In this document: positions 140 through 37,138 of the stretch, piece by piece | Layout: each line of letters begins with the position of its first letter | How positions within the stretch are numbered: position 1 is the first letter of the stretch | Source of the DNA: a bacterium | GTDB taxonomy: Bacteria; J088; JAWLBW01 | Length of the DNA: 49,265 bases | Assembly: GCA_041687475.1 (NCBI GenBank) | Contig: JAWLBW010000003.1 | Coordinates: 1-49,265, forward strand | Direction: 5' to 3' | Translations under genes and position numbers: made by a program | Notes under the pieces: generated by a model | Databases searched by the model: none | What the model saw: only the letters and a program-made list of their open reading frames with translations | What the model was told of the DNA's origin: nothing

Positions 140-149
140 AAACGGGATA

Positions 150-1089: not shown

Positions 1090-2013
1090 TCACTCGGTTT
1101 CTTCGGCAGGGCACTCGCGAATGGTGAGCACGCGCTGGTGTATTTCATCGTCGGGCGTGCCCCACGTCTGGTCGGGGCCCCGGCCGCCGTAAAGGGTGGT
1201 GGCCGTGGTGCGTCCTTCTTCGTCGTACTCGTACACGGTAATGGAGCCGACGAGATCGTCGGCCGTGCCCCAGCGCCTGTCAAAGCCTGCCTCGAGGTAG
1301 TCGACGGTACGCACGAGGCGCCCCTGCTCCCAATCCGATACGGAGCGGCTGACCTCGGGCTGTGCGACGGCATCGGTCGATGCGGTCTGGTAACCGACGA
1401 CCCGGCTGCGGCGGCCCTTCCGGTCGTATTCGAACGCCAGCCGGCTTTCGAGCATTTCGTCGGTTACTTCGTCGCGGGTCCGGATACGAATACCGACCTC
1501 GCGGCCATCCTTCCACTCGTGAAGGTTCTCGGCCAGCAGTTCGTCGTCTTCGGTGCGCCAGACGGCGTCACTGCCCGGACTTCCGTAGCTGCGCTCTTCG
1601 AGAATGTGCCCGAAGGGGTCGTACGCCATTCGGTTGTCGTAAATCAGATCGTCGTCGGCGGTCTTCCACACGCCGTCGGCGCCGGGGCCGTTGTATACCA
1701 GGCTCTGCACGCGGTGGCCGAGCCCATCGTAGCCATGCACGACACGCGTGCCCATGACATCGTCTTCCGTGCCCCAGAGGCCGTCTACGCCGGCCCCCGT
1801 CACGGTGCGTTCGGCAACGACCCGCCCCTGCTCGTCCCAGATGAATTCGGTGACGGAGAAGATGGCGTCGTCAAGGGTGGCCCATTTCCCGTCTTCGCCC
1901 GGCCCCATATAGGTACGCACGGCCTTCTCGCGGCAAACCTCGGCCGCCGGAGCCGATGCCGGAAGGGCAAGCCCGAGTAGAAGGAGTGAAGTGATCATGG
2001 CGATGCGAGGCAC
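1090..2013 (-). CDS. Secreted YD/RHS-like beta-repeat protein with six GxDxxWxTxDD loops
   Basis: Signal peptide LLLLGLALPASAPAA. YD-like turns (WDEQGR, YDGLGH, YDPFGH, YDRKGR, YDEEGR) alternate with acidic W-x-T-x-D-D loops. Alternative start at ATG 1998. Confidence 0.7.
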   Translation of the reverse strand: MPRIAMITSLLLLGLALPASAPAAEVCREKAVRTYMGPGEDGKWATLDDAIFSVTEFIWDEQGRVVAERTVTGAGVDGLWGTEDDVMGTRVVHGYDGLGHRVQSLVYNGPGADGVWKTADDDLIYDNRMAYDPFGHILEERSYGSPGSDAVWRTEDDELLAENLHEWKDGREVGIRIRTRDEVTDEMLESRLAFEYDRKGRRSRVVGYQTASTDAVAQPEVSRSVSDWEQGRLVRTVDYLEAGFDRRWGTADDLVGSITVYEYDEEGRTTATTLYGGRGPDQTWGTPDDEIHQRVLTIRECPAEETE

Positions 2014-6793: not shown

Positions 6794-9700
6794 CTACGGC
6801 AGCTTCAAGGTGATCCACGAAGAGCCGACCGCCGAAACATAGACCCGGTTACCGGTGGCGGGCACCGAGACCGGCTGGCCGGCCTGCGTGCGCACACTGT
6901 ATACACCGTAAGGAAGCGCCGCCACGACCTGGCCGTCGCGCACCGGCAGCACGATGCTTCTGCCCAGCAGCAGTTCTTCGAACACCAGAACCTGATCGGG
7001 AGGTTCGACACCGCCGGGGCCCTCTGCAACGGCCGAAAGGTATCCGAGTCCCGTGTGCTTCGGAGCCCCCAGGGTGTTCAAGTTCGCAAGTATATAGGTC
7101 TGGTACTCGTCATGGGCCACCCAGCTCCAGCAATCGCCCTGCGCGAGCACGATGCCCAGAGAGGCCTGGCGCCACTGCCCGCACCTGGCTTCCTGCGCGA
7201 GCATCTGCAGCCCCCACCCTCCGGGAAGCACGAACGGCAGCAGATTGGGAGCGGCCAGGGCCGGCAGCAGCCCGGGAAGCAGAAACGCCCGGGCCATGAC
7301 CCCTTCCCAATCGGCCCACCACGCTCCCGGCATCGAAGCCGTGGTAACCAGTGACCAGTAGGGCGGTTCCTGATACATGTCTTCGACCAAGGTTGCCGGC
7401 GCCGGCTGGGCACAGGCAGAGGTCGAAGAAAACTCGGCGCAGACCCGGTCGGGCGCCCCCTGATGAACGACCATGCCGCGCGGGTCGTCGGCATTTCTTT
7501 CCCGGGGAAGCGTGAACTCGACCCAGGCGCCCGCGGTCACGGTGCGAGACCACAGAAGGTCGTCGTGCGCCATCGACACCTCGCCCGTGTCGCCGCTCAC
7601 GGGCAAGGAGAAGTATCCTTCGTCGTCCGACGTCGACTCGGAAAGATAGCCGTTGTTGTTCCACCGCACGACGGCTCCCCGCACCGGTGTTCCACCTTGG
7701 TCGACCACCCTTCCCCCCAGCGTGTCCGAGGTTTCCAGCATACGGAGAACCACGGCCTCGGTGGCTTCGGTAATGCTTCTCTTTTCAAGCAGGCGGTTCT
7801 GCCTGAAGGCGTGAAGCCGGCTGCCCACGGCAGGCGCTTCGTCGAGGTATGCAGTGCCCGTCGCGTCGGAGCGCCCGACCACCGTATCGCCGACGTAAAC
7901 CAGCGCCGGCGCGGGTAAGCCGGCTTCGTCTTCAATAGAGACTTCAAAGCCGCACGCCGAGCAGGTAGAAGCGGCCGAGGTCGAGAAGTATTGCGGCGCA
8001 AGTGCTTCGCCCTCGTTCCACAACACGACTTCGGCGTCGAGCAGCGGGTAACGCCAGTTCACCATGAGCCAGGCGGCCCCGGGCGTCGCCTCTTCAAAGT
8101 CGGCGGTTACGGCGTAGGAGGCGACAACGCCCGCGTCGGACAGGTTACCGGGTGCACGATAGCGAATCTCACCGGTTACCAGACTACCGTAGGAAACTCC
8201 CGTCATGACGACGAAAATCGAACCGAGCGGCGCCGACTCGCCGATATCGACCACGCTAAACGGGCCCGGTCGCGTCGCGACATTCACCTCGTCGACCCAG
8301 CAGGGTACGGTATTGCGCGCTTCGCCCTTGCTCAGAATTCCATCGGCACGCACGCCGGTAACGTCGTCGGCGTAAAAGGTACAGTAACCACTCGCAGGTA
8401 CCGAAACCGCTGCGGGAAACGCCAGGTCATCGTACGTCACGTGCGAGACCGGAAAGCCGAACCGTTCGCTGCGCCATTCAAAGACCAGCCGAGAGGCGTC
8501 GACTCCACCTTCGACGGTAACCGTCATTTCGCGCACGTAGTCGGGTTGCTGAGGTGCGAGCGCAAGGGGCGTCAGGCTCAACGGCGCGCCGCGTGAACGC
8601 CAGGGCTCGGCATCATCGACCCCGGCAAACCGATCGGTCGGATCGGTGAAAGCCCTGTCGAATGTGCTCCAGCGCCCGTCGCCGTCGACGTCTTCGACGA
8701 AGAGAAGGTGGGGAATGTTGAACCAGTCGCGGGCGTATTCGCCGCCTGCATCAAGGTAGAGGTCTTCGACCGGTCGCCATTCTCCGGCCGGGCTGGTCGC
8801 GTTCGAGGCGTAAACCAGCCATCGTCGATCGCCCGGAAGCACGGCGGCCAGGCCGGCATGGTAAACGGCATGGGTTTCCCATTCATGACGTCCGTATCGC
8901 CGGTAGGCGAACTCGTTCCACCCGCTTGCCAGCGCGATGTCATGCAAGGAGCCCGTATAGGGTTCCCAACCGTCGACGTGCAACAGCCTGACTTCGCTCG
9001 GGGCCTCGCCTACATGTCCGGTCAGGTCGAATACCGACTCGGTGCGCATGACGATTGGCTCGGGCTCCTGCACCTGCCGCATTCCGGCGAAGGCCGTGAG
9101 GTCAAGGTTCTTCGGCGCCGCCGTTCGCTCGTTGCCCGACCGGTCGACGGCGCGGGGTTGCAGCTGCGCAAGACTAGACGTTCCCTCGGTCAGGGCGGTG
9201 GCGAAGGTGTAAACCCCCGGCAATTCGGGCTCGGCCGCCAGCGCGAGGCAGGCTTCGCTTGCCGGGTTGCACATTTCAACCCGTTCAAGCCCCGCCAGAC
9301 CGTCCGAGGCTTCGAGCAGCAGGGCGTTCTTCCACGTATCGCGATCGAAGGAAAATCCGGTCGTTTTCCAGGCAATTTCCGGCGGTGTGCCGTCGACCAC
9401 GAAGTCCCAGGCATTGCCGACATGGGCGCTGCCCCCGGGCAAACGCACCAGGCACTGGGCGCGATGCTCCCGGTCCGTGTCGAAAGGGCCGACCTGGGCC
9501 GTTACCTGGCCCGCGAAGTCGTCGACCGACAGGGGCACCGATTGGCCGTCGATGGACAATTCCGGATAGGAGAGCGCCACCGGCAAACGGTAGCGAACAC
9601 TGAGGGGTATGGCGACGCCGGTCTTGAAGAACCGCTCGGGCGGCGTTACGAGTTCGCACCAGGCGTCTGTCGACACCCGCTCGAATACGTACTCGTGAAC

Positions 9701-10045
9701 CATGGGGCCGAAACGGTTGCCCTCGTCATCTTCGACGATGACCTGCAACTGCGTCGACGTAACGAGGCGTACCGAAAAGCTACCCTCGAACCGTCGCTCG
9801 GGCGACACCACGGGGGCTTCGTTCACGCCGAAGTACAGGCCGTAGGAGCTGTCGGGCGCTCTGACGGTGACATCGAGCGTGTAGGCCTGGTAGCGCCCGG
9901 GCGAAGGCGAAAAGGTCAGAACGGGAGCCCGTGGAGAGATCACGGCCCCCGGCCCGCCGGTATCGGTACCGTCTGCCCCGCAGGCAGACAGCAATACAAC
10001 CAACCAGGCCAGAATTCCGAATCCGAGCCCCCCTCCCCTGAACAC
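6794..10045 (-). CDS. Large multidomain lipoprotein (Ig-like / carboxypeptidase-regulatory-like domains), copy A
   Basis: Lipobox LSAC. FSPSPGRY (Fn3-associated/CHB_HEX_C-like start), Ig-like VVDGTPPEI...AVDRSGNE, DVDGDG loop, GRVVDQGGTPVRGAVV...SDDEGYFSL. Colinear paralog of 15984..19235; both are 1083 aa. Confidence 0.8.
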   Translation of the reverse strand: MFRGGGLGFGILAWLVVLLSACGADGTDTGGPGAVISPRAPVLTFSPSPGRYQAYTLDVTVRAPDSSYGLYFGVNEAPVVSPERRFEGSFSVRLVTSTQLQVIVEDDEGNRFGPMVHEYVFERVSTDAWCELVTPPERFFKTGVAIPLSVRYRLPVALSYPELSIDGQSVPLSVDDFAGQVTAQVGPFDTDREHRAQCLVRLPGGSAHVGNAWDFVVDGTPPEIAWKTTGFSFDRDTWKNALLLEASDGLAGLERVEMCNPASEACLALAAEPELPGVYTFATALTEGTSSLAQLQPRAVDRSGNERTAAPKNLDLTAFAGMRQVQEPEPIVMRTESVFDLTGHVGEAPSEVRLLHVDGWEPYTGSLHDIALASGWNEFAYRRYGRHEWETHAVYHAGLAAVLPGDRRWLVYASNATSPAGEWRPVEDLYLDAGGEYARDWFNIPHLLFVEDVDGDGRWSTFDRAFTDPTDRFAGVDDAEPWRSRGAPLSLTPLALAPQQPDYVREMTVTVEGGVDASRLVFEWRSERFGFPVSHVTYDDLAFPAAVSVPASGYCTFYADDVTGVRADGILSKGEARNTVPCWVDEVNVATRPGPFSVVDIGESAPLGSIFVVMTGVSYGSLVTGEIRYRAPGNLSDAGVVASYAVTADFEEATPGAAWLMVNWRYPLLDAEVVLWNEGEALAPQYFSTSAASTCSACGFEVSIEDEAGLPAPALVYVGDTVVGRSDATGTAYLDEAPAVGSRLHAFRQNRLLEKRSITEATEAVVLRMLETSDTLGGRVVDQGGTPVRGAVVRWNNNGYLSESTSDDEGYFSLPVSGDTGEVSMAHDDLLWSRTVTAGAWVEFTLPRERNADDPRGMVVHQGAPDRVCAEFSSTSACAQPAPATLVEDMYQEPPYWSLVTTASMPGAWWADWEGVMARAFLLPGLLPALAAPNLLPFVLPGGWGLQMLAQEARCGQWRQASLGIVLAQGDCWSWVAHDEYQTYILANLNTLGAPKHTGLGYLSAVAEGPGGVEPPDQVLVFEELLLGRSIVLPVRDGQVVAALPYGVYSVRTQAGQPVSVPATGNRVYVSAVGSSWITLKLP

Positions 10046-10048: not shown

Positions 10049-13000
10049 CTACCTGCTCCGTTCCCGTCTGCGCCAGGCAAGCACGGTCAACACCCCGGCC
10101 AGCAGGAGCCCTCCGATGTCGCCCGACTTGGCCTGACCGCAGGAAATACCGAACGTGCGTTCCCACCAGGGGGCTTCGCCACCGTTGTAGTGCATGCGGG
10201 CGCCGCTTTCGTTACCGGCGGCATCACGCGCTCTTACCTGCAATACGTGCTCGCCGCGGGTAAGTCCCCGCAACGGTACCGTATCGCCCGTCAGCGTCAT
10301 CCAGTCATCGCCGTCCCAGGTGTACTCGACGGTAATCGCGTCGCGGCTGGCCTGGGCGTCGGAAACGTCGACGGTAATGGGCGCGCCGCCCGTTCCCCCG
10401 CGCAGGTCGATGCGCGGAGCAACCGTGTCGACCCGGAAGGTGTAGTCGCTGGCTTCCAGGGCGACCTTCGGACCGGCATCGGTGTATTCGACGGCCCTCA
10501 CCTTCAAAGTATGCTGCCCTTCGGTCAGCCCCGAGAGCGAAATGGCCTCGTCGTTTTCGGGTGTGTGCCAGAAGCCCCCGTCAAGCGACCAGGTGTAACC
10601 GACGCGGGTTTCCTTGCCCAGGTGCGCGAAGGAGCCGAACGACTGCACCGGTATTTTCGGCGAAGTCGAACCGAACCAGGTCTGACGTTCGGCCAGGGGC
10701 ACGAGCGCCTTCGGTTCAATGCTGCCCGGCGGCGAAAGAAGCGCCGCGGTTTCAAGCAGGCTGAAGACGTTCAGATTGCCGAGGAAGCGGGCATAGACGC
10801 CCAAGTAGTCGCCCTGCCCGATGCCGTCGTCGTTCGGCCCGTCGGGGCCGACGTAAAGCGCATCGATGGTGAAGTTGGCGAAGTTCATGCGCGAGACGAA
10901 AAACAGGCTCACGAACGAATTCATCAACGTCGGCACCGCCTGCGAAATACCCATGCGGTTGCATCGCGCCGAGCCGTCGCAGAAAGTGCGCTCGATGACG
11001 ACCGACGAAGACCCACGCGTGGTGCCGATATCGCTGAAATAGCCGGCGGGGAAGTCGGTGCCGTTCTCCCAATCGTTGATCAGCGTTTCACTGTTCAGAT
11101 CGACGTATATCTCATAGTAACCCGACACCGTACGCACGTTGACGTAGGGACTGGTGCACTGCGGATCGTTGAAGAGCGGATCGAGGTGGAAACATCTACG
11201 CACCGACTGCACGTGAAGGCCGAGCACCGGCGTCCAGTACATGGTGAGCACCGAAACCTCGCCCCCCTCGGGATCGTCGAGCACGAAGTCGAGCTTGATA
11301 TCGGGCACGGCAATGCTCAGCGAGTACGGGCCGCGCATGGGCAGCGGCGCCTCGGCCGGATTGTCGCCGGCCTGCGGCACGAAGTCCAGATTACCCAGTC
11401 CGGTACGCACCCGCGGCGTGGCCGTGGGGGTAAGACGAACCTTCATGTATCTGCCCGGAAACAGCGAGGCCACTTCGGGAATGAAGGCGCTGAAGCGTTC
11501 GGTCGCCAGCAGGTCTTTCCAAGGCGTATCGGCCCCGGTCGTATCCTGGGCGGCAAATTCGAGGCACCCGGCTCCGGAAGCGAACACCGCCTGCAGGAAC
11601 TGGGCGATTGATCGCTGGTGCAGATGCAGGCTGAAGTCGTAGCGCACCGGGTTCGGTTCGCGGCTGTTCCAGTCGTTTGCATTCTGCTGGAAGACATAAT
11701 TTCCCGGCACCTCGTCCCAGGCACCGATGGTCGCCCGCGAACCGGGGGTAATCATGCCCGAGCCGACCGGCGCCGGATCGTAGGTCGGGTGGAAGCTTGG
11801 CCAGGTCGTGCGCGGATACAGCGCGGCAAAATCGGCCGCGGTGCCACCGTTACTGCGCAGCGTGCGCGGCCCGGCAACGCCGTCGGCCGACAGACACCAC
11901 GACGGCGGGCGCTTGTCTTCGGGAATCGGGCCCGAGAAATACTCGGGTATGCGCGCATACTGGCCGAGGGTTACCTGACCGCCCGTCTTCGGGTTGATAT
12001 AGGTGCCGCTTGCTCCGGTCACGTAGTCATTGCCGTCGATGACCTGGTCGACATCGCGGGTGGCCGGATGGCTGCCCAACGAGCAGTTGCCGCCACACCC
12101 CGTCGTATCGGGGTTCATGAGGGTCGGCACGCCGAAGACCGAGTCGGGCAGCGGCGGGTCGTTGTTGTCGATGTCCATGACGTTGTTCGGCCCCACCGGC
12201 GGGCGGAAGGCCAACGGTTTGAACCCGAGCGAAAGTCGCAGGTCGGCGGCCTCGGAGTTGGCCGTGGGCCCGGGCTGCATGAAGACCGGCCACCGCACCG
12301 TGCCGTCGGGCATGGTCTTGTAGGCGCCCGGGTAATTGCCGCCGACGGCATAAATGCCGTTGTCGATGAGCGCCGTACCCATGTTGATCGGGTCGCCGAG
12401 CACCGAGTTGAGGTTCGGAATTTCAGCCGCGAATTCCTCGAGGAAGGGCGCGATCATATCGGTGAGTGCGTCTTCGATAATCGGAATGAGCATGTCGGGC
12501 ACGCCCAGGGGAATACCGATACCGAGAATGGTAACGTCGTCGTTCAGTACGTCGCAGAACGAAAAATCGATCGAGCCCAGAATGCCGGCGTCAAGTGAGA
12601 CGTCATCGGGACAGTCGGCCGACGGAAACACGAACGGGTCGGTACGGTTCAGCCGCAGATCCTGGACCGTAGCCTCGAAGGTCAGGCGCGACGGGTTCAG
12701 CTTTCCGTCGTTGAACTGGTTGAAGACATCTTCGCAGGCAGCCGGATTGGCCGGGGTGCACGAAGAGTCGTCGACGCTGAAAATGCGAAGGGTGGCGTCG
12801 ACCTCGAGGCTGTGGAAGCCCACGTAGCCCATGATGCGACGATTCGGATTGTTCGAAACGTCGGGCAGGGGCCAGGGCATATCGCTCAAGCGCAGGTCGG
12901 CGGCTGCCGCCAGCTCGAGTCTGATATCGGGGGCGCTCAGCTTGATCTCGATGCGCGGGTCGGTGCCGCCGAACAGCTGGAACTGATCGAGGCTCAACAT

Positions 13001-14548
13001 GTACCAGCCGCCGCCGGGGGCAAAACGGTTTTCCATGTTCGTGAGCCGGTAATTGGCAGGTCTCGGCGTACCGCCGTTGATGGTCGTGCAGGCGGCATTG
13101 TCGCAGGGCGGCTGTGCGCCGCAGCGACCCGGCGAGCTGTAACCGCCCGTATCGGGATGCCCCGGATACAACCACTTGTTGTCGTCGTTGTCGATATTGT
13201 AAGAGCCGTCGGCGTTCCAGGTATCGAAGGGCCGGCACGCCTGCCAGCGGTTTTCCTCGAAACTCCAGTACGACTTCGGAAGCACGCAATTGGCAACCGG
13301 CGTGTTGGCTCTGATGTACCGCGGCTTACCGTTGCCGTCAAGCTGTCCGGTATAGAAGTGATCGGGACCGCAACCCCGGGTTCCATTGAAGGAACTGCGG
13401 TTGACGCTGTGCACCTGCATCTGCTTGTAATTGATGTACAGCGCCTGATCGTCGCCGCCACGGAAATAGGTGCCCGACAACCGGTTGTATGAGCTCGAAG
13501 AATTGTAACCGCTCGCCGTGGTGGGCAAATTCTTCATCCACGTGTCGTAGCGCACGTAACCGTTCAGCGGGTTGCAGACCGGTCGGTACTTGTTCTTGTC
13601 GGACAGTGGCCAGACACAGTCGTGCTTACCGTCGACCACGCAATAGTGGCCGGTAGGGCAGTCGAAATATTCGCCGACCAGGTAGGCCGACAGGCTGTCG
13701 AGTCCGTAATAGGAGCCGCGCTTGACCGTGGGCGTCCAGTTGTCCATGGCAGGACGAGAACCGCCGACGGTATCGACCCGCTCATGCTCGACGTGCGAGT
13801 TGGGGTACAGGAACAGTCGAATGCTGTAGTCGAGGTCGATGCCCAGGGCGACATCGTTCAACGTCGCGCCGCAGGCCCCCGTATCGCCCGAACCGGCATC
13901 CTTCGAACCGTAGTAGGTCGTGCAGAACTGAAGCTGGTAGAAAGCGTTGGTGCCCTTTGCGATGTAGAAACCGTTTTCACGAAAATGAGGCCTTACCTGT
14001 GTGGGAATCGAGGGATAGCCGGCAAGGGTTCCGGGGCGCCGCACCTGCAGCCACAAGTTACTCGGTGCTCGCTTATTGGTCTTGTTGCAGGCGTAGCCGC
14101 ACTGCACGCTGCGCGATTCGCCGCCGCCGATGCAGTTGCTCCAGTTGCAGGTTTCGTAGTTTACGGGCCGCGAGATGGTGTCGTAGCGTACCCAGTCCCA
14201 CAGCATGGGGGTCGTGCGCATCAGGCCGGCCGTACCATGGGTCTGAAAATCGTAACCCGGGTCGAGAATGAGGTTGGCGCCCGCACTATCGAGATGCGGC
14301 GTACCCCACTGGTTGAACGTGTCGCGAATGGTTATGCGCAGGTAGTCCCATGCGCCCTTTGTCAGACGTAGCCTGGCAGCAGTACCGGTGACGTTGGGGT
14401 CGGAAATGGGCAGGGCCTTGCTGATCGGCCCGTCGTAGGTTGCCGTGCCCCCATCGTAAACGTTCTGCGTGTTCGCGTCGGCGACGCGAACCGTCGTCGA
14501 CAGGACCAGTAAGCTGAGTAATGCGGTAAGAATGGGCTTTTTCATCAT
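10049..14548 (-). CDS. Giant Cys-rich surface protein with BPI/LBP(TULIP)-like motifs, C-terminal Ig-like domains and MYXO-CTERM-like sorting tail, copy A
   Basis: Signal peptide, GTAARLRLTKGAWDYL and FSLHLHQRSIAQFLQAVFASGAGCL. Ig-like GLTEGQHTLKVRAV, VDTVAP and VRARDAAGN. Tail SC-x8-GLLLAGVLTVLAW-RRR. TAATG overlap with the upstream gene. Confidence 0.8.
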   Translation of the reverse strand: MMKKPILTALLSLLVLSTTVRVADANTQNVYDGGTATYDGPISKALPISDPNVTGTAARLRLTKGAWDYLRITIRDTFNQWGTPHLDSAGANLILDPGYDFQTHGTAGLMRTTPMLWDWVRYDTISRPVNYETCNWSNCIGGGESRSVQCGYACNKTNKRAPSNLWLQVRRPGTLAGYPSIPTQVRPHFRENGFYIAKGTNAFYQLQFCTTYYGSKDAGSGDTGACGATLNDVALGIDLDYSIRLFLYPNSHVEHERVDTVGGSRPAMDNWTPTVKRGSYYGLDSLSAYLVGEYFDCPTGHYCVVDGKHDCVWPLSDKNKYRPVCNPLNGYVRYDTWMKNLPTTASGYNSSSSYNRLSGTYFRGGDDQALYINYKQMQVHSVNRSSFNGTRGCGPDHFYTGQLDGNGKPRYIRANTPVANCVLPKSYWSFEENRWQACRPFDTWNADGSYNIDNDDNKWLYPGHPDTGGYSSPGRCGAQPPCDNAACTTINGGTPRPANYRLTNMENRFAPGGGWYMLSLDQFQLFGGTDPRIEIKLSAPDIRLELAAAADLRLSDMPWPLPDVSNNPNRRIMGYVGFHSLEVDATLRIFSVDDSSCTPANPAACEDVFNQFNDGKLNPSRLTFEATVQDLRLNRTDPFVFPSADCPDDVSLDAGILGSIDFSFCDVLNDDVTILGIGIPLGVPDMLIPIIEDALTDMIAPFLEEFAAEIPNLNSVLGDPINMGTALIDNGIYAVGGNYPGAYKTMPDGTVRWPVFMQPGPTANSEAADLRLSLGFKPLAFRPPVGPNNVMDIDNNDPPLPDSVFGVPTLMNPDTTGCGGNCSLGSHPATRDVDQVIDGNDYVTGASGTYINPKTGGQVTLGQYARIPEYFSGPIPEDKRPPSWCLSADGVAGPRTLRSNGGTAADFAALYPRTTWPSFHPTYDPAPVGSGMITPGSRATIGAWDEVPGNYVFQQNANDWNSREPNPVRYDFSLHLHQRSIAQFLQAVFASGAGCLEFAAQDTTGADTPWKDLLATERFSAFIPEVASLFPGRYMKVRLTPTATPRVRTGLGNLDFVPQAGDNPAEAPLPMRGPYSLSIAVPDIKLDFVLDDPEGGEVSVLTMYWTPVLGLHVQSVRRCFHLDPLFNDPQCTSPYVNVRTVSGYYEIYVDLNSETLINDWENGTDFPAGYFSDIGTTRGSSSVVIERTFCDGSARCNRMGISQAVPTLMNSFVSLFFVSRMNFANFTIDALYVGPDGPNDDGIGQGDYLGVYARFLGNLNVFSLLETAALLSPPGSIEPKALVPLAERQTWFGSTSPKIPVQSFGSFAHLGKETRVGYTWSLDGGFWHTPENDEAISLSGLTEGQHTLKVRAVEYTDAGPKVALEASDYTFRVDTVAPRIDLRGGTGGAPITVDVSDAQASRDAITVEYTWDGDDWMTLTGDTVPLRGLTRGEHVLQVRARDAAGNESGARMHYNGGEAPWWERTFGISCGQAKSGDIGGLLLAGVLTVLAWRRRERSR

Positions 14549-15492
14549 TACTCTCCGGCAGGTTCGCAGGCGGTGAGATCGACTCCGGGCGGCGCGCCGT
14601 CCGGATTGCCGCAGTATTCAATCGCCAGTCTCTTCCGACCATGCTTGAGCAGAGCCTGCTCGGCCCGGGCCGGTTCGTGCGCCGCGATCAGCGATGCCAG
14701 GGCATAAGCCTCGAGCATGGCGCTGTCCTGGCGTCCGGCGCGGTTGGCGACATATTCGGGCTTCGCTTCAACCAACCGTTCGATGTGCCGGCTGGTGAGC
14801 CATGCCCCGAAACCGCCGCGCAACAGGTCGACGACTGCAAGCAGGAATTGGTCATCGCTGCGATAGTCGGCGCCCGCCACGAACGCGACCAGCGGCCAGG
14901 CTTTGGCGTCGTACCACGCCTGCGACACACAGTCATTGGTTTTCAGGAAGTGCAGCACGCGCAACTTGCCGAGCTCAAGCTGTACGGGCACACGGGTCAT
15001 GAGGCGATCAACCATCTGTTCGTTCCACGAGCGCTGGTCGCTGCGACAGGAAGAAACCAGAATGTTCAGGTCGGCAACGGCCTGCATTGCGTACCTGAAC
15101 TGCTCTCTTGGCGTCGAGCCTGGCGACATGCTGTCGCTCTTCAGCACCATGCCCGTCGATCCCGGGCGCACCGGCAGCGGCACCCCACGGGTCAGGCGAT
15201 CGTCATCGGACAGTTTCGAAACATAGGCCTCAAAGCCCATTTCGATGGGAAAAGCGGCTTCGATGCTCTGCAGTCCGTAGGCAAGGAAGCGCCCCTCGGT
15301 AAGGCCTCCTGAAAACGCCCGACTGAGCGCCTCTTCGAGCTTCGCAGCAAGGCTGTCGACCGTATAGCCGTAGTAAATGGGGCCGGAAACCGCCTTTTCG
15401 CCGGAAGGCGATGCATGCACCGTCTGCCCCGACAAAAGGATGCCGACCATGCCAAAGACGCCCATGAACAACGCGAAAACCAGCTTTCTCAT
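14548..15492 (-). CDS. Secreted alpha-helical hypothetical protein, copy A (first gene of the operon)
   Basis: Signal peptide MRKLVFALF...VHA, purine-rich RBS, four Cys conserved with the paralog 23717..24670. ORF extends to 15516. Confidence 0.75.
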   Translation of the reverse strand: MRKLVFALFMGVFGMVGILLSGQTVHASPSGEKAVSGPIYYGYTVDSLAAKLEEALSRAFSGGLTEGRFLAYGLQSIEAAFPIEMGFEAYVSKLSDDDRLTRGVPLPVRPGSTGMVLKSDSMSPGSTPREQFRYAMQAVADLNILVSSCRSDQRSWNEQMVDRLMTRVPVQLELGKLRVLHFLKTNDCVSQAWYDAKAWPLVAFVAGADYRSDDQFLLAVVDLLRGGFGAWLTSRHIERLVEAKPEYVANRAGRQDSAMLEAYALASLIAAHEPARAEQALLKHGRKRLAIEYCGNPDGAPPGVDLTACEPAGE

Positions 15493-15629
15493 CTCCCACT
15501 CCCCTACAACTGACACTGCAAGGCTTCATCCTGGAGTCGAGCTCGTTGCCGGAACTCAAAGGGGGAAGCAAGTACCTTCGGGCTCGCCGAAAAAGCACCG
15601 TCTACCCATTCACCAAGGTAAAAAGCAAC

Positions 15630-15983: not shown

Positions 15984-18900
15984 TCAGGGAAGCGTCAGTG
16001 CGTGGTTCGTAGGGTGAACGGGCGAAATTCTGATCAGGTTGTCCGGGTCGTCGGTGAGAAGTCGGCGACCGTCGAGCACGTGAGCTTCGTATACGCCGTG
16101 CGGCACCGAAGCTTCCAGGTACCCGTCGTTCATCCAGGCCTGAATACTGCGTCCCAGAATAAGCTCGGTTAGAACCACGAGTTGGTTGCCAGGCGTGCCT
16201 CCACCATGATTGTTCACCGTGGCCGACAACAATCCGAGGCCTGCGTGGGAAGGCGCACCGAGCGTATTCAGGTTGGCCAGCACATAAGTCTGCCGGGCGT
16301 CGGATGCCAGCCATGTCCAACAGTCGGCGTGGGCCAGAAGCGCGCCATTCGGCTCTTGCCGCCACTGCCCGCACCAGGCTTCCTGGGCAAGCAAATCAAG
16401 CCCTTCGCTGATCGGCAGCTGAAATCCCGCCGTGTTCTCGGCACGAAACGAGGGAAGCGAACCCGGCAGAACAAACTTCCGCGACATGTACTCCCACTCG
16501 GCCCACCATTCGCCCGTCATGGACGCAGCCGTAACAAGCGTCCAGTAGGGTGCATCATAGGCGCTGCGGGTAACCAGCGAAGCCGGAGGGTCGCTCAGGC
16601 ACATACCGGCTCCGGCGAAGTGCCCGCATACCCTGACAGGTGCGCCGTCGGCTGAAATCAGCCCACGCGGATCGTGTGCCGCCGGCGGGCGGGGCAGCGA
16701 AAAGTCGACAATCGCCTCTGCCGAAACAGACTCGGACCGCGTGAATTGGCGGCCGTTTCCGCTCCAGCTCATCGTGATGGTGCCCCAGGGGTCGCTTACC
16801 GGCAAGGCATAGGCGCCGCTGTCATCCGAAGTGGTTTCCGACAGATAACCGTCGCTTTCCCAACGTAGAACCGCACCGCGAACGGCACTTCCCTCATGGT
16901 CCCTGACCACGCCCGTTACGGTCAGGGAATGTTCGAGAAGGCGCAGGTTCACCACGTCGGTGGGCGCGGTCACGTAAAGTTTTTCGAGCAGGCGATTCTG
17001 GCGGAAGGCCCATAGCTCCTGGCCGAACACCAACGAGTCGGACAGCATGGCGCGTCCCGTTACGTCGGAAAGCCCGTCAACCTGACCATCGACGTGAATC
17101 AACGCCTGAAGGTCGCCCCCCTCTTCGTCGATGACCCGTACCTCGACGGCACACCCGACGCATGCTTCTTCGGGAGCCGCGGTAAAGGACTGCGCGGGAA
17201 CCGATGCGTCAAGATTCCACACGCGAAGCTCGGCTTCGAGGCGAGGGTAAAGCCAGGGCTCGAAAAACCAGGCGGCGCCGGGAACAGCTTCATCGTAGTC
17301 GCCCGTCAACGGATAACGGGCAATCACCCCACTGTCGGAAAGACTGCCCGGCACGCGGTAAACCACTTCACCCGTCACGGCGGAACCGTACGCGACTCCG
17401 TATACGACCAGCGCAAGGATCTCTTCGGGTGGAAGCTCGCTCATTTCCATGGGCGCAAACGGCGCCGGGCGCGTTGCAATCTCAAAGCCGGTTGCGCCGC
17501 AGGGGCCTGAAACCCGCGCCTCGCCCCGGTTGAGAATTCCGTCGGAAACTCCCTCGCTGACGCGGTCGGCAAAGAAGGTACACCAGCCGCTTGCCGGTAC
17601 GGATACGTCGGCAGGGAAACTCAGGCCGTCCCACGAGTGATGGAGCGCCGGATAGTCGTTTCGTTCGGCCCGCCACTCGAAAACCACCCGGTCGGCCGCC
17701 ACACCCTCTTCGACCGCCAACACCGCCGCTTCCGTCAAGGCAGGCGGCGGGGGATTCCACTGAACCGGCGCAAAGACGACAGGTTCGCCCCGCGAACGCC
17801 AGGGAGGCGAATCGGCTCTACCGGCAAACGCGTCTGCGGCATCGGTGAAAACGCGGTCGTAGCTTCCCCAGCGGCCATCGGGCTCGACGTCTTCGACAAA
17901 AAGAAGATGCGGCACGTCAAGCCATGCTTCTTCCCAGAGACCGCCGCCCGGCAACTCGGCCGACAGGCGCCATTCGCCGGCGGGGCTGGTGCCGTTCGAC
18001 GCGTAAACCAGCCAATCGGCGCCTTCGGGCAGGCTTATCGACAGGCCTGCCCGGTAAACGGCGAAGGTTTCCCAGCTCTGCTTTCCGGTTCGCCGGTAGG
18101 CGAATTCATTCCACCCGGGAGAAAGCGCAACGGCATGCAGCGCGTCGGTGTACGGCTGCCAGCCGTCGGCGTGCAGCAGGCGAACATCGGCCACCGAGCC
18201 TCCCAGGGCTTCGAGCAGGTCGAAGTGGGCGGCCGTTACCATGGCAATGGCACTTCCCGCCTGGGCCGACCAGGGTTCGGCAAAGGCCGTCAAGTCAAGC
18301 GTTCGCTGTGGAGCAAGTCTCTCGTTGCCCGCAAGATCGATGGCCCGGGCATAGAGAACGGGCTGTACCGAAGTGCCGTCGGTCAGCGCAGTCGAATAAA
18401 CGTAGGCGCCCGGGCCGGACCCGGCCTCTTCGAGCGCAAGGCAGACGTCGTCGGGTGCGCGGCAGATCTCGACGCGCTCAAGCCCCGTGAAGGCATCGCC
18501 GGCCTCGAGACGAAGTTCATTCTTCCACGTGTCGCGATCATGCGTAAAGTCGGTCGTGATCCACCCGATTTCGGGTGGCGTGCCGTCGACCACGAAGTCC
18601 CACGTATTGCCGGCCCATGCCGTACCGCCGGGTAGTCGCACCAGACATTGCACTCGGTGCGAGCGGTCGTGCGAGAAAGGGCCCACGTCGGTCGTTACCG
18701 CTCCCGCGTAGTCGTCGGCGGCAAGCACGATGACTTCGCCGTCGAGCACGAGCTCGGGCCGGGCAAGCGACACCGGAAGCTTGTATTTCACGGCGACGGG
18801 CACCTTCTGCCCGGTCTGGTAATAAACCCGTGGGGGAACGTCAAGCTGGCACCAGGCATCACTCTGGGTGGGCTCGAGTATGTATTCGTAGCTCACAGGG

Positions 18901-19235
18901 CCGTACAGACGGCCGTCGGGCGCTTCGACGATGACCTGCAACTGCGTCGACTTCGCCAACTGAACGGCAAAACGCCCTTCGGCACGCAGGTTGGCAGCCA
19001 CCCGCGGCTCGTCGTCGAGGGCAAAGTATAGACCATACCCCTCGTCGGGGGCGGTCACCGATACCTCGAGCCGATAAGCCTGGTAGCTGCCCGGCGCCGG
19101 CGAAAGCTCGAGCGTCGGAAACTGCACCGGCACGGTAACCGGGGGGCGTCGGTCGTCACGGGTATCGCCCTCGCACCCCGCCGAAGCAAGGACCGACAGC
19201 AGTACCCCCCAGGCAACGCCCCGTGGCCCCCGCAT
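15984..19235 (-). CDS. Large multidomain lipoprotein, copy B
   Basis: Lipobox SAGC. Same domain order and length (1083 aa) as 6794..10045, with shared blocks STQLQVIVE, WDFVVDGTPPEI, GWNEFAYRR, AFRQNRLLEK and QTY.LANLNTLGAP. Confidence 0.8.
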   Translation of the reverse strand: MRGPRGVAWGVLLSVLASAGCEGDTRDDRRPPVTVPVQFPTLELSPAPGSYQAYRLEVSVTAPDEGYGLYFALDDEPRVAANLRAEGRFAVQLAKSTQLQVIVEAPDGRLYGPVSYEYILEPTQSDAWCQLDVPPRVYYQTGQKVPVAVKYKLPVSLARPELVLDGEVIVLAADDYAGAVTTDVGPFSHDRSHRVQCLVRLPGGTAWAGNTWDFVVDGTPPEIGWITTDFTHDRDTWKNELRLEAGDAFTGLERVEICRAPDDVCLALEEAGSGPGAYVYSTALTDGTSVQPVLYARAIDLAGNERLAPQRTLDLTAFAEPWSAQAGSAIAMVTAAHFDLLEALGGSVADVRLLHADGWQPYTDALHAVALSPGWNEFAYRRTGKQSWETFAVYRAGLSISLPEGADWLVYASNGTSPAGEWRLSAELPGGGLWEEAWLDVPHLLFVEDVEPDGRWGSYDRVFTDAADAFAGRADSPPWRSRGEPVVFAPVQWNPPPPALTEAAVLAVEEGVAADRVVFEWRAERNDYPALHHSWDGLSFPADVSVPASGWCTFFADRVSEGVSDGILNRGEARVSGPCGATGFEIATRPAPFAPMEMSELPPEEILALVVYGVAYGSAVTGEVVYRVPGSLSDSGVIARYPLTGDYDEAVPGAAWFFEPWLYPRLEAELRVWNLDASVPAQSFTAAPEEACVGCAVEVRVIDEEGGDLQALIHVDGQVDGLSDVTGRAMLSDSLVFGQELWAFRQNRLLEKLYVTAPTDVVNLRLLEHSLTVTGVVRDHEGSAVRGAVLRWESDGYLSETTSDDSGAYALPVSDPWGTITMSWSGNGRQFTRSESVSAEAIVDFSLPRPPAAHDPRGLISADGAPVRVCGHFAGAGMCLSDPPASLVTRSAYDAPYWTLVTAASMTGEWWAEWEYMSRKFVLPGSLPSFRAENTAGFQLPISEGLDLLAQEAWCGQWRQEPNGALLAHADCWTWLASDARQTYVLANLNTLGAPSHAGLGLLSATVNNHGGGTPGNQLVVLTELILGRSIQAWMNDGYLEASVPHGVYEAHVLDGRRLLTDDPDNLIRISPVHPTNHALTLP

Positions 19236-22200: not shown

Positions 22201-23720
22201 CCGGGGCTGAAGCGATTTTCCATCTGGGCGCTCGACAAGGCTTTTGGGTTGGGTATGTTCGAGCACCAGGCGTCGGAGCAGGGAGGCTGGGCGCCGCAAC
22301 GCCCCGGCGAACCGTAGCCCCCTGAGTTCGGATTACCCGGATACATCCATTTTCTGTCGTCGTTGTTCGGGTTGTACGTGCCGTCGGAGTTCCAGGTATC
22401 GAAGGGGTTGCATTGCACCCAATCGCTCTCTTCGTAACTCCAGTAGGACTTGGGCAACACACAATTGGCAGCTTGCCCCGCCGTCAGGTAGCGGGGCTGA
22501 CCGCTCACCAGCTGCCCGGTATAAAAACGCTCGGGACCGCAGCCGTACGTACCGTTGAACGATGATCGGTTTACGCTGTGCACCTGCATCTGATTGTAGT
22601 TCAGGTACAGCGACTGATCGTCGCCGGGGCGGAAATAGGTGCCGAGCTGCCTGCTGTACGCAGCCGTACGGCTGTAGGCCCCGGCGCTGGTGGGCAGGTT
22701 CTTCAGCCAGACATCCCAACGTTGGTAGGTATGGGCATTGCAGTCACCCGGCTTGTAACGGTAGCGCCAGACGCCGACGCAGGCGCCCCAGGCCATGCCG
22801 CCGCAACAGTATCGGCCGTCGCCGAGACACTGAACGCCGTTTTCACAGTCCCAGGTTTCGGTAATCAGGCGCCGCTGCAGGCTGTCGAGGCCGATATAGG
22901 GCCCGCGCTTGACTGTCGGCGTCCACGAGTCGGTGGGTACCCGTTCGTGCTCGACGTGCATGTTCGGGAAAATGAACAGGCGAATGTTGTAATCGAGATC
23001 GATGCCGAGCGTGATGTCTTTAAGCTGCGGTCCGCATGCGGCAGTATCGCCCGACCCCGAATCCTTGGAGTACCGGCTGGTGCAGAACTGAAGTTGGTTG
23101 AAGCTGGCGCCGTCGTCGGCAATCCAGAAACCGTTTTCGCGAAAGTGGGGGCGAATGTCCGAATGCACCGACGGCTTTCCGCCCATGTAGGCCGTTCCGG
23201 GGCGCCGCACCTGGAGCCAGCGGGTTCCGGGCGCCATCTGGCTGGTCTTGCGGCACTCGAGCCCGCAGTACTTGGTGCGATAATCGAAGCCCCCGAGACA
23301 ACCCGAGGCGCTGTCGCAGCCGGGGTCGTTACGCACGCGCGAGCGCCCATCATAGCGCACCCAGTCCCACAGCATGGGCGTGGTACGGGCCAGACCGGCA
23401 TTGCCGTGATTGATGTAGTCGTAGCCGGGGTCGAGAATGAGGTTGGCTCCGGTCGGGTCCTTACCGGGCGTGCCCCAATCCTTGAACGTGTCCCGCACGG
23501 TTATGCGCAGGTAGTCCCAGGCGCCGCGGGTGAGTCGCAGACGGGCGGCGGTACCGGTGATATTGGGGTCGTTGAGGGGCAACGCCTTTTTAACCGGCCC
23601 GTCGAACGAAGGCCCTGAAGACAGTTCGATGACCTGGCCCTCGTCCTCGACTGCTGCTCGGGCCGTTCCAGGGTAGAAGAGGAAAAGCGAGAGTAACGCA
23701 GTGACTATCGGTTTCTTCAT
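19242..23720 (-). CDS. Giant Cys-rich BPI/TULIP-like MYXO-CTERM surface protein, copy B
   Basis: Start MKKPIVTALL at ATG 23720 (ATGA overlap with the upstream stop). Colinear with 10049..14548. Tail SC-x8-ALLLAVVLAGLAV-RRR. Confidence 0.8.
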   Translation of the reverse strand: MKKPIVTALLSLFLFYPGTARAAVEDEGQVIELSSGPSFDGPVKKALPLNDPNITGTAARLRLTRGAWDYLRITVRDTFKDWGTPGKDPTGANLILDPGYDYINHGNAGLARTTPMLWDWVRYDGRSRVRNDPGCDSASGCLGGFDYRTKYCGLECRKTSQMAPGTRWLQVRRPGTAYMGGKPSVHSDIRPHFRENGFWIADDGASFNQLQFCTSRYSKDSGSGDTAACGPQLKDITLGIDLDYNIRLFIFPNMHVEHERVPTDSWTPTVKRGPYIGLDSLQRRLITETWDCENGVQCLGDGRYCCGGMAWGACVGVWRYRYKPGDCNAHTYQRWDVWLKNLPTSAGAYSRTAAYSRQLGTYFRPGDDQSLYLNYNQMQVHSVNRSSFNGTYGCGPERFYTGQLVSGQPRYLTAGQAANCVLPKSYWSYEESDWVQCNPFDTWNSDGTYNPNNDDRKWMYPGNPNSGGYGSPGRCGAQPPCSDAWCSNIPNPKALSSAQMENRFSPGGGWYMLKLDEFQLYGGTDPRIRIKLGAPDIRLELGAAADLYLSDIPLFPNSNNENKRVLGYVGFNSLQVEATLRLFNVDDTSCTSASAAGCTGIFNPYNDGKLNPSRLSFEATVDSLKLNRTDPFLMPSAYCDSISLDLGILGSISFSFCDILNDNARILGIRIPLGVPDMLIPIIEDALKDMIAPFLEEFAAEIPNLNTALGDPMNIGTALIENGIYAVGGNYPGAYKTMPDGTVRWPIFMQPGPGGGSEVADLRMSVGFKPMAFRPPVGANNVMDVDLNDPPLSTSVYGVPTLMDPNTSGCGSNCSRGSHAATEDEDQVMDGDDYVTGASGSYLNPKTGVRQYLSRHARLPEYWAGPIAEDKRPPSWCLQAGNNGGPRTLRDNGGSASDFAALYPQTHWLSFNPTYDQAPAGSGLVTPGVKNTLGNWDTVPGSAVFRQNTNNWSLRETSPVRYDFSLHVHQRSIAQFLQAVFASGAGCLEFAAQDAEGGDTPWKSLLATERFAAFMPEIASLYPGRHMKVRLTPTATPRVRTGMGFLDFLPDSQGASAGEAPLRMRGPYALSIAIPDLKLDFVLDDPDGGDISIITMYWTPVLGLHVQSVRRCFYLDPLFNDPQCTSPYVNVRTVSGYYEFYVDMNSPNLQAAWENGLDFPAGYFNDIGTTRGDSSIVIERTICDGTSRCNRIGLSNAIPALMNSFVNLFFVSRMNFANFTIDAVHVGPDGPNDDGVGGGDYLGVYARFLGNLNVFSLLETAALLSPPGSIEPQAFVPVAERREWFNSVTPEIPIEALGSFAHVGQDSTVGYTYSVDDGFWHTPTEQESLILPTLTEGPHKLKVRAVEYTEAGPKVALEATEYSFRVDTVAPEVTLSGGEDGSPITVRASDAQTPAGYVTVEYAWNGEDWRQLSGDVVPRDGLVRGDHVLQVRARDLAGNESGARMRFSGGSDPWWERAFGLSCAQSEARDTSALLLAVVLAGLAVRRRYDSR

Positions 23721-24670
23721 TGCCCACCCCCATTGGCTTCGCACATCGACAGGTCTTCGCCCGGCGGCGCGGCTTCGGGATCGTCGCAGTAAACGCTTGC
23801 GCCGTACCGCGTGCGACCGTGCTTGAGCAGACGGGATTCGGCCGCCTGGTAGTCGTGGGCGGCAATCAACGAGGCCAGCGAGTAGGCCTCGAGCATGGCG
23901 ATGTCGCGGCGCGCATAACGCTCGTCGGTGTCGCCCCGCATGCCCTCAATGAGTTTCGAGACATGTTCGGCGGTAATGTAGGCGCCGAAGCCCCCGCGCA
24001 GCAGGTCGGAAATCGAAAGCAGCAGCTCTTCGTCGGTCTGGGTCGCCACTGCGGCAGCCACGACGGAGGCCAGCGGGTAGGCGGCGGCATTGAACCAGGT
24101 ATCGGACACGCACTGATTGGCCTTGAGCACGGTAAGTACCCGCAATTTCCGGGCCTCGAGCTCGCCGGGCAACCGCGAAAGCAACGACTGTGCCTTCGCC
24201 TGATTCCACTCTTTCTCATCGCTGCGGCATGCAGAGAGCAGCAGGTTCAGATCGTAAACGGTATGGAAGGCCTGGCTGAGCTGAGCCTTGGCCGTGGTGG
24301 GTCGGGCGGTCGAGTCGCTCTTGAAAGTCATGCCCTGGCGGCCGGGTCGGGTCCGGAAGGGAATGCCCCTGCCCAACCGCTCTTCGTCGGGCACCCCGGC
24401 AATATGCTCTTCATAGCCCATGTCGAGTTCGAACGACACTTCGAGGCTCTGCATGGCGTGGGCCAGATACTTGCCGTCGGGCAGGTGAGAAGAATACGCA
24501 CGAGTCAAGGCACTCGAAAGGGCCTCGAGCAGGCTGTCGACCTGGTATCCGTAATAAACGGGGCCCGAAACCGCAGCGTCGTCCGATGCATGCGAGGGCG
24601 TCGCGGCGGGAAAAGCACTCAGCGCAAGACAACCGAGTCCGGCGAGCATTCGTGTAATACGCTTTTTCAT
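23717..24670 (-). CDS. Secreted alpha-helical hypothetical protein, copy B
   Basis: Signal peptide MKKRITRMLAGLGCLALSAFPA. Shares AVSGP.YYGY.VDSL, DLLRGGFGA, AMLEAY.LASLIAAH, LLKHGR and YC..P..APPG.DL..C with copy A. Confidence 0.75.
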   Translation of the reverse strand: MKKRITRMLAGLGCLALSAFPAATPSHASDDAAVSGPVYYGYQVDSLLEALSSALTRAYSSHLPDGKYLAHAMQSLEVSFELDMGYEEHIAGVPDEERLGRGIPFRTRPGRQGMTFKSDSTARPTTAKAQLSQAFHTVYDLNLLLSACRSDEKEWNQAKAQSLLSRLPGELEARKLRVLTVLKANQCVSDTWFNAAAYPLASVVAAAVATQTDEELLLSISDLLRGGFGAYITAEHVSKLIEGMRGDTDERYARRDIAMLEAYSLASLIAAHDYQAAESRLLKHGRTRYGASVYCDDPEAAPPGEDLSMCEANGGGQ

Positions 24671-24801
24671 CTTTCCCACCTGTTTCCGCGATCCACAGTT
24701 TGCGGCAGGCTGCTTCTCGCAGAGAAGTCATTCTGCCGTTTGAGTTGCCCCCAACCGAATCAAGCGGACGCACCGAGGTTCGGATACCGATCAAAGGCCA
24801 T

Positions 24802-37131: not shown

Positions 37132-37138
37132 ACCTTCC

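Follow-up and report, generated by a model that had tools for sequence, protein, structure and literature searches.

The window, by which we mean the whole 49,265-nucleotide stretch of DNA analysed here, contains two cassettes, A and B, each with a gene for a giant protein, a gene for a small secreted protein and a gene for a lipoprotein:

6794..10045, minus strand: lipoprotein of cassette A, 1083 aa, with Ig-like and CarboxypepD_reg-like domains
10049..14548, minus strand: giant gene A (P0001), 1499 aa, an ORF whose translation begins with a signal peptide
14548..15516, minus strand: small secreted protein of cassette A, 322 aa, start/stop-coupled to giant gene A
15984..19235, minus strand: lipoprotein of cassette B, 1083 aa
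19242..23720, minus strand: giant gene B (P0003), 1492 aa counted from the ATG at 23720
23717..24679, minus strand: small secreted protein of cassette B, 320 aa

Giant proteins A and B are tandem paralogs with 68% identity, and the start of giant gene B overlaps the stop of the upstream gene in an ATGA. The partners have diverged beyond the giant protein, the small secreted proteins being 46% and the lipoproteins 50% identical between cassettes, so the variable loops described below are not the sole fast-changing part of the cassette. The small protein had no family match and no match among PDB sequences, and comparison of the lipoprotein with PDB sequences gave nothing meaningful (best E 0.15). 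The trio of small gene, giant gene and ~1080-aa gene was kept at all five complete loci inspected in two genomes. A sixth copy, split over contigs C416 and C92, has the giant gene and the ~1080-aa gene in the part inspected, which excludes the upstream end. Downstream of the C8-type loci, the only Pfam match among the membrane genes was to the UbiA family, in the sister genome. The giant family itself is rare, with 16 matches among 1.84 billion protein representatives and, across 185,579 species, a single further genome that has it; a profile search of contigs with the family alignment (A3) returned only the two loci of that sister genome. Four giant paralogs are present in the genome studied here.

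Giant protein A was divided into a signal peptide, a BPI-like double TULIP carrying a Cys-rich head insert, two Ig-like domains and a tail with Cys, transmembrane and Arg elements. The assignments to TULIP parts are predicted from a structural model:

14312..14392, minus strand: A residues 53-79, N-terminal strand and helix A of TULIP barrel 1 (DSSP of the model)
12995..14311, minus strand: A residues 80-518, Cys-rich head insert, which holds all three variable loops
10649..12994, minus strand: A residues 519-1300, remainder of the double TULIP (Foldseek, VIA and sequence profile)
10184..10648, minus strand: A residues 1301-1455, two Ig-like domains (sub-threshold OmpL47-type, PKD and Big_13 matches)
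10052..10183, minus strand: C-terminal tail with a single Cys, a hydrophobic stretch and an Arg cluster (MYXO-CTERM-like)

The first-pass annotation had called this architecture antibody-like, a description that does not hold for the scaffold, the core of which instead matches BPI, LBP and CETP. An AlphaFold2 model of A residues 36-1235 (mean pLDDT 65, pTM 0.61) was compared by Foldseek with known structures, and the human proteins BPI (PDB 1bp1/1ewf; E 1.2e-7), LBP (4m4d; 2.9e-5) and CETP (2obd; 4.7e-4), represented in Pfam by PF01273 and PF02886, were the sole matches at E <= 0.001 (5 chains). With VIA, BPI aligned at Z 10.6 and rmsd 5.6 over 410 of its 456 residues, spanning model positions 14..1181, while the single-TULIP proteins Der f 7, JHBP and Takeout aligned to model positions 28..675, a span which indicates that the head interrupts barrel 1. 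Two helix-beta-sheet-helix barrels and a central sheet were found in this model of pLDDT 65. DSSP placed a strand at model positions 18-27 and a helix at 29-44 (model index + 35 = A residue), so that the head insert of ~440 residues falls after helix A and ahead of the first long strands of the TULIP; A residues 519-1300 would then supply the long strands and helix B of barrel 1, the central sheet, barrel 2 and further insert sites. Sequence comparison gave a weak match in the same direction: the family profile matched BPI among PDB sequences (E 4.4e-4, 20.7 bits) at profile positions 930-981, which fall on the C-terminal barrel of BPI, and LBP at the same segment with E 0.85. No match to PF01273 or PF02886 above threshold was found in A, B, the C8 paralog, P0005, P0007 or P0013-P0017, the C8 paralog scoring a sub-threshold 16.4 bits against LBP_BPI_CETP_C (cut-off 23), and weak Atlas leads also pointed toward a BPI-like fold. 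Taken at the strength of the model, the giant protein looks like a BPI/LBP/CETP-like double TULIP with a head that interrupts the N-terminal barrel after helix A. The head insert alone had no Pfam match at E up to 10 and no Atlas match. Folded alone by AlphaFold2 it gave an unusable model (pLDDT 40), with 0 Foldseek matches at E <= 0.001, and for this reason we do not call the head fold new.

At the other end of the protein, the translated tails of A and B combine a Cys motif, a hydrophobic span and an Arg cluster at the extreme C-terminus, and the tail cysteine C1470 is invariant in 15/15 members. Membership in the MYXO-CTERM class is defined by the models TIGR03901 and TIGR03382 with a curated cut-off of 20 bits. 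The proposed analogy with TraA, a MYXO-CTERM-sorted receptor, stands in this respect for the family, in which three of eight tails tested exceed the TIGR03901 cut-off (P0013, 25.4; P0015, 23.7; C8 paralog, 21.1 bits), but not for A and B themselves, which score 15.0 and 15.8 bits; P0011 and P0016 (both 19.7) and the G001 paralog (17.7) also fall below it. The genome has 8 MYXO-CTERM matches of its own, seven above 20 bits alone and one only with its neighbours in frame. The Ig-like module of A is common to other proteins of related genomes.

The three variable loops of the head were located in both paralogs:

14081..14182, minus strand: loop 1 of A, residues 123-156, 4 Cys; A/B identity 14/35
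13571..13663, minus strand: loop 2 of A, residues 296-326, 4 Cys; A/B identity 10/37
13031..13105, minus strand: loop 3 of A, residues 482-506, 2 Cys; A/B identity 8/25
23247..23351, minus strand: loop 1 of B
22740..22850, minus strand: loop 2 of B, 6 Cys
22218..22280, minus strand: loop 3 of B

It had been proposed that these Cys-bounded loops vary on a near-invariant scaffold. Re-reading of the coordinates found the loops of A and B where they had been placed, and all flanks quoted for them (RTTPMLWDWVRYD, WLQVRRPGT, WTPTVKRG, QMQVHSVNRSSFNGT, SPGRCGAQPPC and MENRF.PGGGWYML) are identical in the A/B alignment. The extra Cys pair of loop 2 in B was likewise recovered (6 Cys against 4 in A). 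Variable loops on more conserved flanks are thus borne out by A/B identity, by indels and by other homolog pairs. The scaffold is indeed more conserved than the loops, but "near-invariant" overstates it: outside the loops the mature proteins are identical at 964/1334 positions (72%). The difference between loops and rest is significant for A and B (Fisher p 1.9e-14), a test that is circular because the segments were picked from this very pair. Sliding-window identity gave the same picture: when non-overlapping 30-column windows of the mature A/B alignment are ranked by identity, the lowest three are the three loops, with starts at A residues 307 (0.17), 124 (0.37) and 481 (0.40), and the next lowest is at 0.47. 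In all seven other homolog pairs tested the three segments, pooled, were less conserved than the rest (p 6.8e-3 to 3.9e-11); in P0005/P0006, loop 1 by itself was not lower (0.59 vs 0.59). At the DNA level, a repeat finder returned collinear A/B blocks at 13037-13079, 13541-13775 and 13991-14180 that break at the loops, where shifts in the spacing of the blocks indicate indels.

Divergence of this kind could arise if the loops were ordinary surface loops that tolerate insertions and drift under relaxed constraint, with no role in specificity. We regard this reading as possible but doubtful. Low model confidence fits it, pLDDT being below 50 in loops 1 and 2 and ~52-59 in loop 3 of A, as does the greater overall divergence of the cassette partners. 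It sits less well with the comparison to ordinary loops: the three loops are more divergent than seven of the eight low-confidence model segments outside them, which are 0.44-1.00 identical between A and B, the eighth being a 6-residue indel site at A 259-264 (0.17).

The cysteines provide a second line of evidence. Across 15 full-length homologs the loops are hot spots of insertion and deletion, with anchored segments ranging from 6 to 45 aa and 0 to 6 Cys for loop 1 (A 122-165), from 3 to 55 aa and 0 to 16 Cys for loop 2 (A 296-330), and from 2 to 48 aa and 0 to 4 Cys for loop 3 (A 477-512). Cys makes up 3.6% of the head insert vs 1.3% of the rest, and 15% of the loops, which are depleted in Tyr and Phe. 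Although the head contains anywhere from 8 to 32 Cys among the full-length homologs, the count of mature, non-tail Cys is even in 14/15 of them, which makes the proposal that the loops are disulfide-stapled a reasonable one for an exported protein. Judging from the homologous sequences, loop cysteines are gained and lost in pairs across the family, which is a clear example of such pairwise change. Cys parity held over so wide a range runs against drift, and the 16 Cys within 55 residues of loop 2 in P0007 are beyond what pure drift would build. On the other side, the loops are short, Cys-poor or missing in whole clades, as drift would allow. In the clade of C8, its G001 counterpart, P0016 and P0017, loop 1 is short and Cys-poor (21-27 aa, 2 Cys) and loops 2 and 3 are absent (2-18 aa, 0 Cys), suggesting that the loops are dispensable for the core function.

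The same cysteines could serve other ends. Were the loops structural braces, their disulfide knots would protect an exposed head from proteases or harsh conditions and take no part in recognition. Even Cys counts and a composition of 15% Cys with few aromatic Tyr and Phe residues agree with this idea, which nevertheless leaves unexplained why the fastest change of all occurs between the cysteines; we consider it improbable. It is more improbable still that the loops are metal-thiolate sites, in which metallothionein-like CxC and CC clusters would bind Cu, Zn or Cd at the surface. Runs of CC, CCC and CxC do occur in loop 2 of P0005, P0006 and P0007, but the protein is exported, as its signal peptide indicates, the even counts fit disulfides, and the loops of A and B have only 4-6 well-spaced Cys each.

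Diversifying selection on the loops, also suggested by the first-pass annotation, did not find support in substitution rates. By the Nei-Gojobori method, dN is 0.67 and dS 1.25 in the loops of A and B (dN/dS ~0.54; pN/pS 0.73, bootstrap 0.54-1.02), against a dN of 0.20 and a dS of 1.17 in the rest. The amino-acid-changing rate of the loops is therefore about three times that of the rest yet does not exceed the synonymous rate, and with dS saturated (~1.2) these ratios are uninformative on positive selection. A loop dN/dS below 1 is compatible with near-neutral change and to that extent favours drift. No close orthologs of A or B were found in the protein collections searched. The sole sequences that three sequencing runs contributed were near-identical unitigs of 151 nt and depth 2-4, each with 0 to 3 differences, which carry no information on variation, habitat or expression; no RNA dataset was among those listed. 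That a dedicated diversification mechanism generates programmed hypervariation here, as in antibodies or DGRs, appears extremely improbable. The one thing in its favour is the look of localised variability, while A and B differ throughout with dS ~1.2, which points to an old duplication. The window showed no DGR-like template repeat of the loops, all 20 direct-repeat families listed, of 24 found, being collinear blocks of the A/B cassettes, and none of the window ORFs scanned, a subset of the total, showed a reverse transcriptase.

Further evidence on the role of the head came from a paralog. In the copy split over C416 and C92, Ricin_B_lectin domains lie within the head after a QMQxxS motif (E 2.9e-21), and in P0014 a Ricin_B_lectin domain is likewise inserted in the head after this motif (E 5.4e-30). 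The presence of ricin-B lectin domains in the same insert of another paralog favours a head that binds a target. Neither drift of the loops nor a bracing function accounts for it: the first does not predict a lectin module in the same head of another clade, and the second leaves a lectin domain inserted nearby unexplained.

The reading we prefer, and to which we give somewhat better than an even chance, is that the giant protein is an exported BPI-like tube with a disulfide-rich head whose loops set the target, held at the surface by its tail and Ig-like domains. In such an arrangement, the tail and Ig-like domains would anchor the protein on its own cell surface, and the lipid-binding tube would project outward with the head at its far end. 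The head would contact a glycan or envelope component of another cell, and the disulfide-stapled loops, or ricin-B lectin domains in another paralog, would determine what binds. The small secreted protein and the 1083-aa lipoprotein, presumably co-transcribed, may work with the giant protein, and the A/B duplication would have given rise to two heads that differ mainly in three loops. In an extension of this reading, which we think unlikely, a single protein would direct lipid traffic between cells to chosen targets: an exchangeable head at the tip, stapled by disulfides or bearing a lectin, would pick a foreign envelope, of kin or prey, the tube, anchored through its MYXO-CTERM tail, would extract or deliver lipids, and the heads of the four paralogs would provide several specificities.

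The study of bacterial BPI-like lipid carriers is only beginning; TipA is reportedly the first such carrier from a predator, and to our knowledge it is not understood how bacterial BPI-like tubes are aimed at a target membrane. Among the papers listed by a literature search for bacterial or myxobacterial LBP_BPI_CETP, none contained that term. In the giant family, the tube would be joined to a large head with fixed sites where disulfide knots or lectin domains can be inserted, which makes the question of aiming testable by swaps of heads or loops. If the unlikely extension to lipid traffic is true, lipids would pass between cells, or prey membranes be attacked, by a route independent of TraA in a barely sampled lineage. 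As the family is extremely rare, all of this rests on sequence and a medium-confidence model.

Among known systems, human BPI, LBP and CETP resemble the model of the giant protein in having two TULIP barrels back to back. The giant protein is three times larger, shares 8-11% sequence identity with them, and has in addition the Cys-rich insert of ~440 residues, inserts in barrel 2, two Ig-like domains and a sorting tail. A bacterial counterpart is Bdellovibrio TipA/TipB, in which the gene for a BPI-like double TULIP shares an operon with that for a partner protein (10.1101/2025.09.09.675085). In TipA, as in the model of A, an N-terminal strand locks helix A into the central sheet; unlike the giant protein, TipA is described there without a head insert, Ig domains or a sorting tail, and dimerises through a hairpin (10.1101/2025.09.09.675085). 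TraA governs the outer-membrane exchange of lipids and proteins (PMC6372800). Like the giant protein as predicted here, it is secreted to the cell surface, varies in its N-terminal region, has stretches rich in Cys and ends in a tail of MYXO-CTERM type (PMC6372800). The giant protein, for its part, has a predicted lipid-transfer fold; homology is not claimed. No Pfam match to the PA14-like variable domain of TraA was found in whole A or B, or in the head alone, at E up to 10. [quoted passage not shown] Finally, although its loop-bearing part is built without an Ig or C-type-lectin frame and its loops are Tyr-poor and Cys-rich, the giant protein resembles antibody CDRs and DGR variable proteins in that a few loops carry most of the variability while the frame around them is better conserved.

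Two tandem three-gene cassettes lie on the minus strand of the window, each encoding a secreted protein of ~320 aa, a protein of ~1500 aa and a lipoprotein of 1083 aa. The genes are coupled through their starts and stops (TAATG at giant gene A, ATGA at its paralog B), with a 3-nt gap ahead of the lipoprotein gene.

Features of the window
10049-14548, minus strand: giant A, 1499 aa
start at the ATG at 23720 (best reading), minus strand: giant B, 1492 aa, recorded in this form as family homolog P0003
4196-6568, minus strand: CHASE2-domain adenylate/guanylate cyclase, immediately after cassette A and in the same orientation; not conserved at the matching locus in the sister genome, a family-mate
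1090-2013, minus strand: candidate ORF with an RHS-repeat match (E 4e-7), overlapping a 358-aa candidate ORF on the opposite strand
36061-37449, minus strand: ORF of 462 aa, no Pfam match at E <= 0.001
37706-39505, minus strand: ORF of 599 aa, no Pfam match at E <= 0.001

Identity is 68% between A and B and lower between their partners (46% for the small protein, 50% for the lipoprotein). Synonymous divergence between A and B is saturated (dS ~1.2), indicating that the duplication is old, and gives no sign of recent gene conversion between them. A motif of the type PPE(I/V) ... D..GNE can be read in both the lipoprotein (6794-10045, minus strand) and the C-terminal Ig-like domains of the giant protein (10184-10648, minus strand), which suggests that these domains may be related.

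The first-pass annotation had described three Cys-bounded loops that vary between conserved flanks, and this observation was confirmed. A and B agree exactly at every flank motif it quoted, and its loop sequences were found where it placed them. Over the full mature A/B alignment, the three loops are the non-overlapping windows of 30 columns with the lowest identity (0.17, 0.37 and 0.40), compared to 0.47 for the fourth-lowest window and 0.72 for the remainder of the protein. Testing loops against the rest in this pair (Fisher p 1.9e-14) is circular, because the segments were chosen from it. In a fairer test, the pooled segments were less conserved than the rest in 7 of 7 other homolog pairs (p 6.8e-3 to 3.9e-11), with a partial miss for loop 1 of P0005/P0006 (0.59 vs 0.59 for the rest). 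Independently, a DNA repeat finder interrupted the collinear A/B blocks at all three loops, and the shifts in block spacing there indicate indels. When 15 full-length homologs are compared, indels concentrate in the three segments.

Loop segments in the 15 full-length homologs
A residues 122-165: length 6-45 aa, 0-6 Cys
A residues 296-330: length 3-55 aa, 0-16 Cys
A residues 477-512: length 2-48 aa, 0-4 Cys

Long, Cys-rich loops characterize the group of A, B, P0004-7, P0011 and P0012. The group of the paralog on contig C8 of the same genome has a short loop 1 (21-27 aa, 2 Cys) and lacks loops 2 and 3 (2-18 aa, 0 Cys). Loop composition in the eight Cys-rich members is 15.4% Cys, with Ser over-represented and Tyr, Phe, Leu, Pro and Gln under-represented; antibody CDRs differ from this. 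The label "antibody-like" is not apt. Outside the tail, mature Cys counts range from 22 to 44 (8 to 32 in the head, the Cys-rich insert that holds the loops) and are even in 14 of 15 members, where at least 14 would arise by chance with a probability of ~5e-4 by our own arithmetic. These even counts are the best support for the proposal that the loops are disulfide-stapled.

Between A and B, the loops (82 codons) have dN 0.67 and dS 1.25, compared to dN 0.20 and dS 1.17 for the rest (1317 codons). Replacement-site change in the loops is thus ~3 times that of the rest, yet not above that at silent sites, where dS is saturated; loop pN/pS is 0.73 (bootstrap range 0.54-1.02), with little power in either direction. 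No close alleles were found in protein collections of 5.8 billion clusters and 1.84 billion representatives, three sequencing runs shared words with the gene but held only 151-nt unitigs, and the window contains no template-like repeat. These results speak neither for nor against diversifying selection, and the first-pass annotation's reading of the segments as specificity loops that would be under such selection is plausible. The main rival account, that the loops drift under relaxed constraint without function, stands against the even Cys counts; we consider it rather unlikely.

The scaffold was modeled with AlphaFold2 for A residues 36-1235 from 18 aligned sequences (mean pLDDT 65, pTM 0.61, loops 1 and 2 below 50). 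Low-confidence segments outside the loops are mostly less diverged than the loops: 7 of 8 are 0.44-1.00 identical, and one 6-residue indel site is at 0.17. Foldseek against the PDB returned five matches at E <= 0.001, all BPI, LBP or CETP (best 1bp1, E 1.2e-7), followed by weaker proteins of the same TULIP barrel fold. VIA-align superposed BPI across model positions 14..1181 (Z 10.6, rmsd 5.6, 410/456 residues), while the single-barrel TULIPs Der f 7, JHBP and Takeout covered 28..675 with only ~185 residues aligned (Z 5.8-8.0). Independently of the model, a family profile matched BPI in the PDB (E 4.4e-4) and LBP over the same segment (E 0.85); the Pfam BPI C-terminal model scored 16.4 bits on the C8 paralog (cut-off 23), and the Atlas gave BPI-family clusters as sub-0.9 leads only. 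The order of elements in the model (strand 18-27, helix 29-44, long strands only from 484 on, helix 648-674), together with the alignments, indicates that A residues ~80-518 are inserted into the first barrel, following helix A. Folded alone, the head reached pLDDT 40, and it had no match by fold (searched with that model), Pfam or Atlas. A preprint (10.1101/2025.09.09.675085) describes the N-terminal strand of double TULIPs as locked into the central sheet, and we infer that the insert is therefore directed off-centre, toward the far end of barrel 1.

The head also accepts modules. At a fourth insert site, after a QMQxxS motif, both P0014 (E 5.4e-30) and the paralog split across contigs C416 and C92 (Pfam E 2.9e-21, above cut-off) carry ricin-type lectin domains, and the start of the insert in the P0019 fragment reads like one of this type. 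Outside the head, P0013-P0016 and the C8 group carry an insert of ~130-170 aa after a VPTLxxPDTSxC motif, and barrel 2 of P0017 is longer by ~550 residues of repeated modules with Cys; neither insert has a Pfam match.

The family is very rare. Against Pfam and NCBIfam, the giant protein had nothing above threshold and only sub-threshold C-terminal Ig-like matches. A word-indexed search of the 5.8 billion clusters found seven family proteins, including A and B; a full scan of the 1.84 billion representatives gave 16 matches at E <= 0.001; and genome_contigs (185,579 species) held two loci, both in one other genome. Of 41 related genomes, only that of the window and its single family-mate had full-length matches; in six others the match covered only the last ~180 residues. 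The window's genome has four paralogs: A, B, one on C8 and one split across C416 and C92. The split pieces (L007:1-1776, minus strand, and L028:1-4152, plus strand), broken within tandem ricin-B lectin repeats of the head, are probably one P0014-like gene of ~2000 aa. At the five complete loci inspected in the two genomes, the giant gene always lies between a small gene and one of ~1050-1080 aa, and a ~1080-aa gene lies beside the split copy. In a maximum-likelihood tree built from the conserved core, with all 16 rows kept, three groups resolve, each with one member in the window's genome; A and B are sisters (100/100 support). Membrane-protein genes lie downstream of the C8-type loci in both genomes (L025:14821-18999, L027:1114-4545); in the sister genome, a 1144-aa ORF there matches the UbiA prenyltransferase family (E 2.9e-9), and in the window's genome the three ORFs after this locus had no Pfam match.

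The tail combines a Cys, a hydrophobic span and an Arg cluster. Against the MYXO-CTERM model (cut-off 20 bits), A and B score below cut-off (15.0 and 15.8 bits), as do P0011 and P0016 (19.7) and the sister-genome paralog (17.7), while the homologous tails of P0013 (25.4), P0015 (23.7) and the C8 paralog (21.1) exceed it. The genome has eight MYXO-CTERM matches, seven over cut-off alone and one only with its in-frame neighbours. Surface anchoring is likely from these tails. The explanation that we favour, by a modest degree, is that the giant protein would be held on the cell surface as a lipid-binding tube, whose variable head would bind a target.

The first-pass annotation drew an analogy to TraA, whose variable N-terminal domain is PA14-like and which also has Cys-rich repeats and MYXO-CTERM. 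The likeness lies in the type of tail and in the pairing of a variable region with Cys-rich parts; unlike TraA, the giant protein has no PA14 match and its operon no TraB-like partner. Among characterised bacterial proteins, the nearest in kind is TipA of Bdellovibrio, which the same preprint (10.1101/2025.09.09.675085) describes as a BPI-like double TULIP opened by its operon partner TipB. TipA lacks the head, Ig domains and sorting tail. Two features are new here: the giant form laden with inserts, and the large head, which is rich in disulfides and accepts modules.
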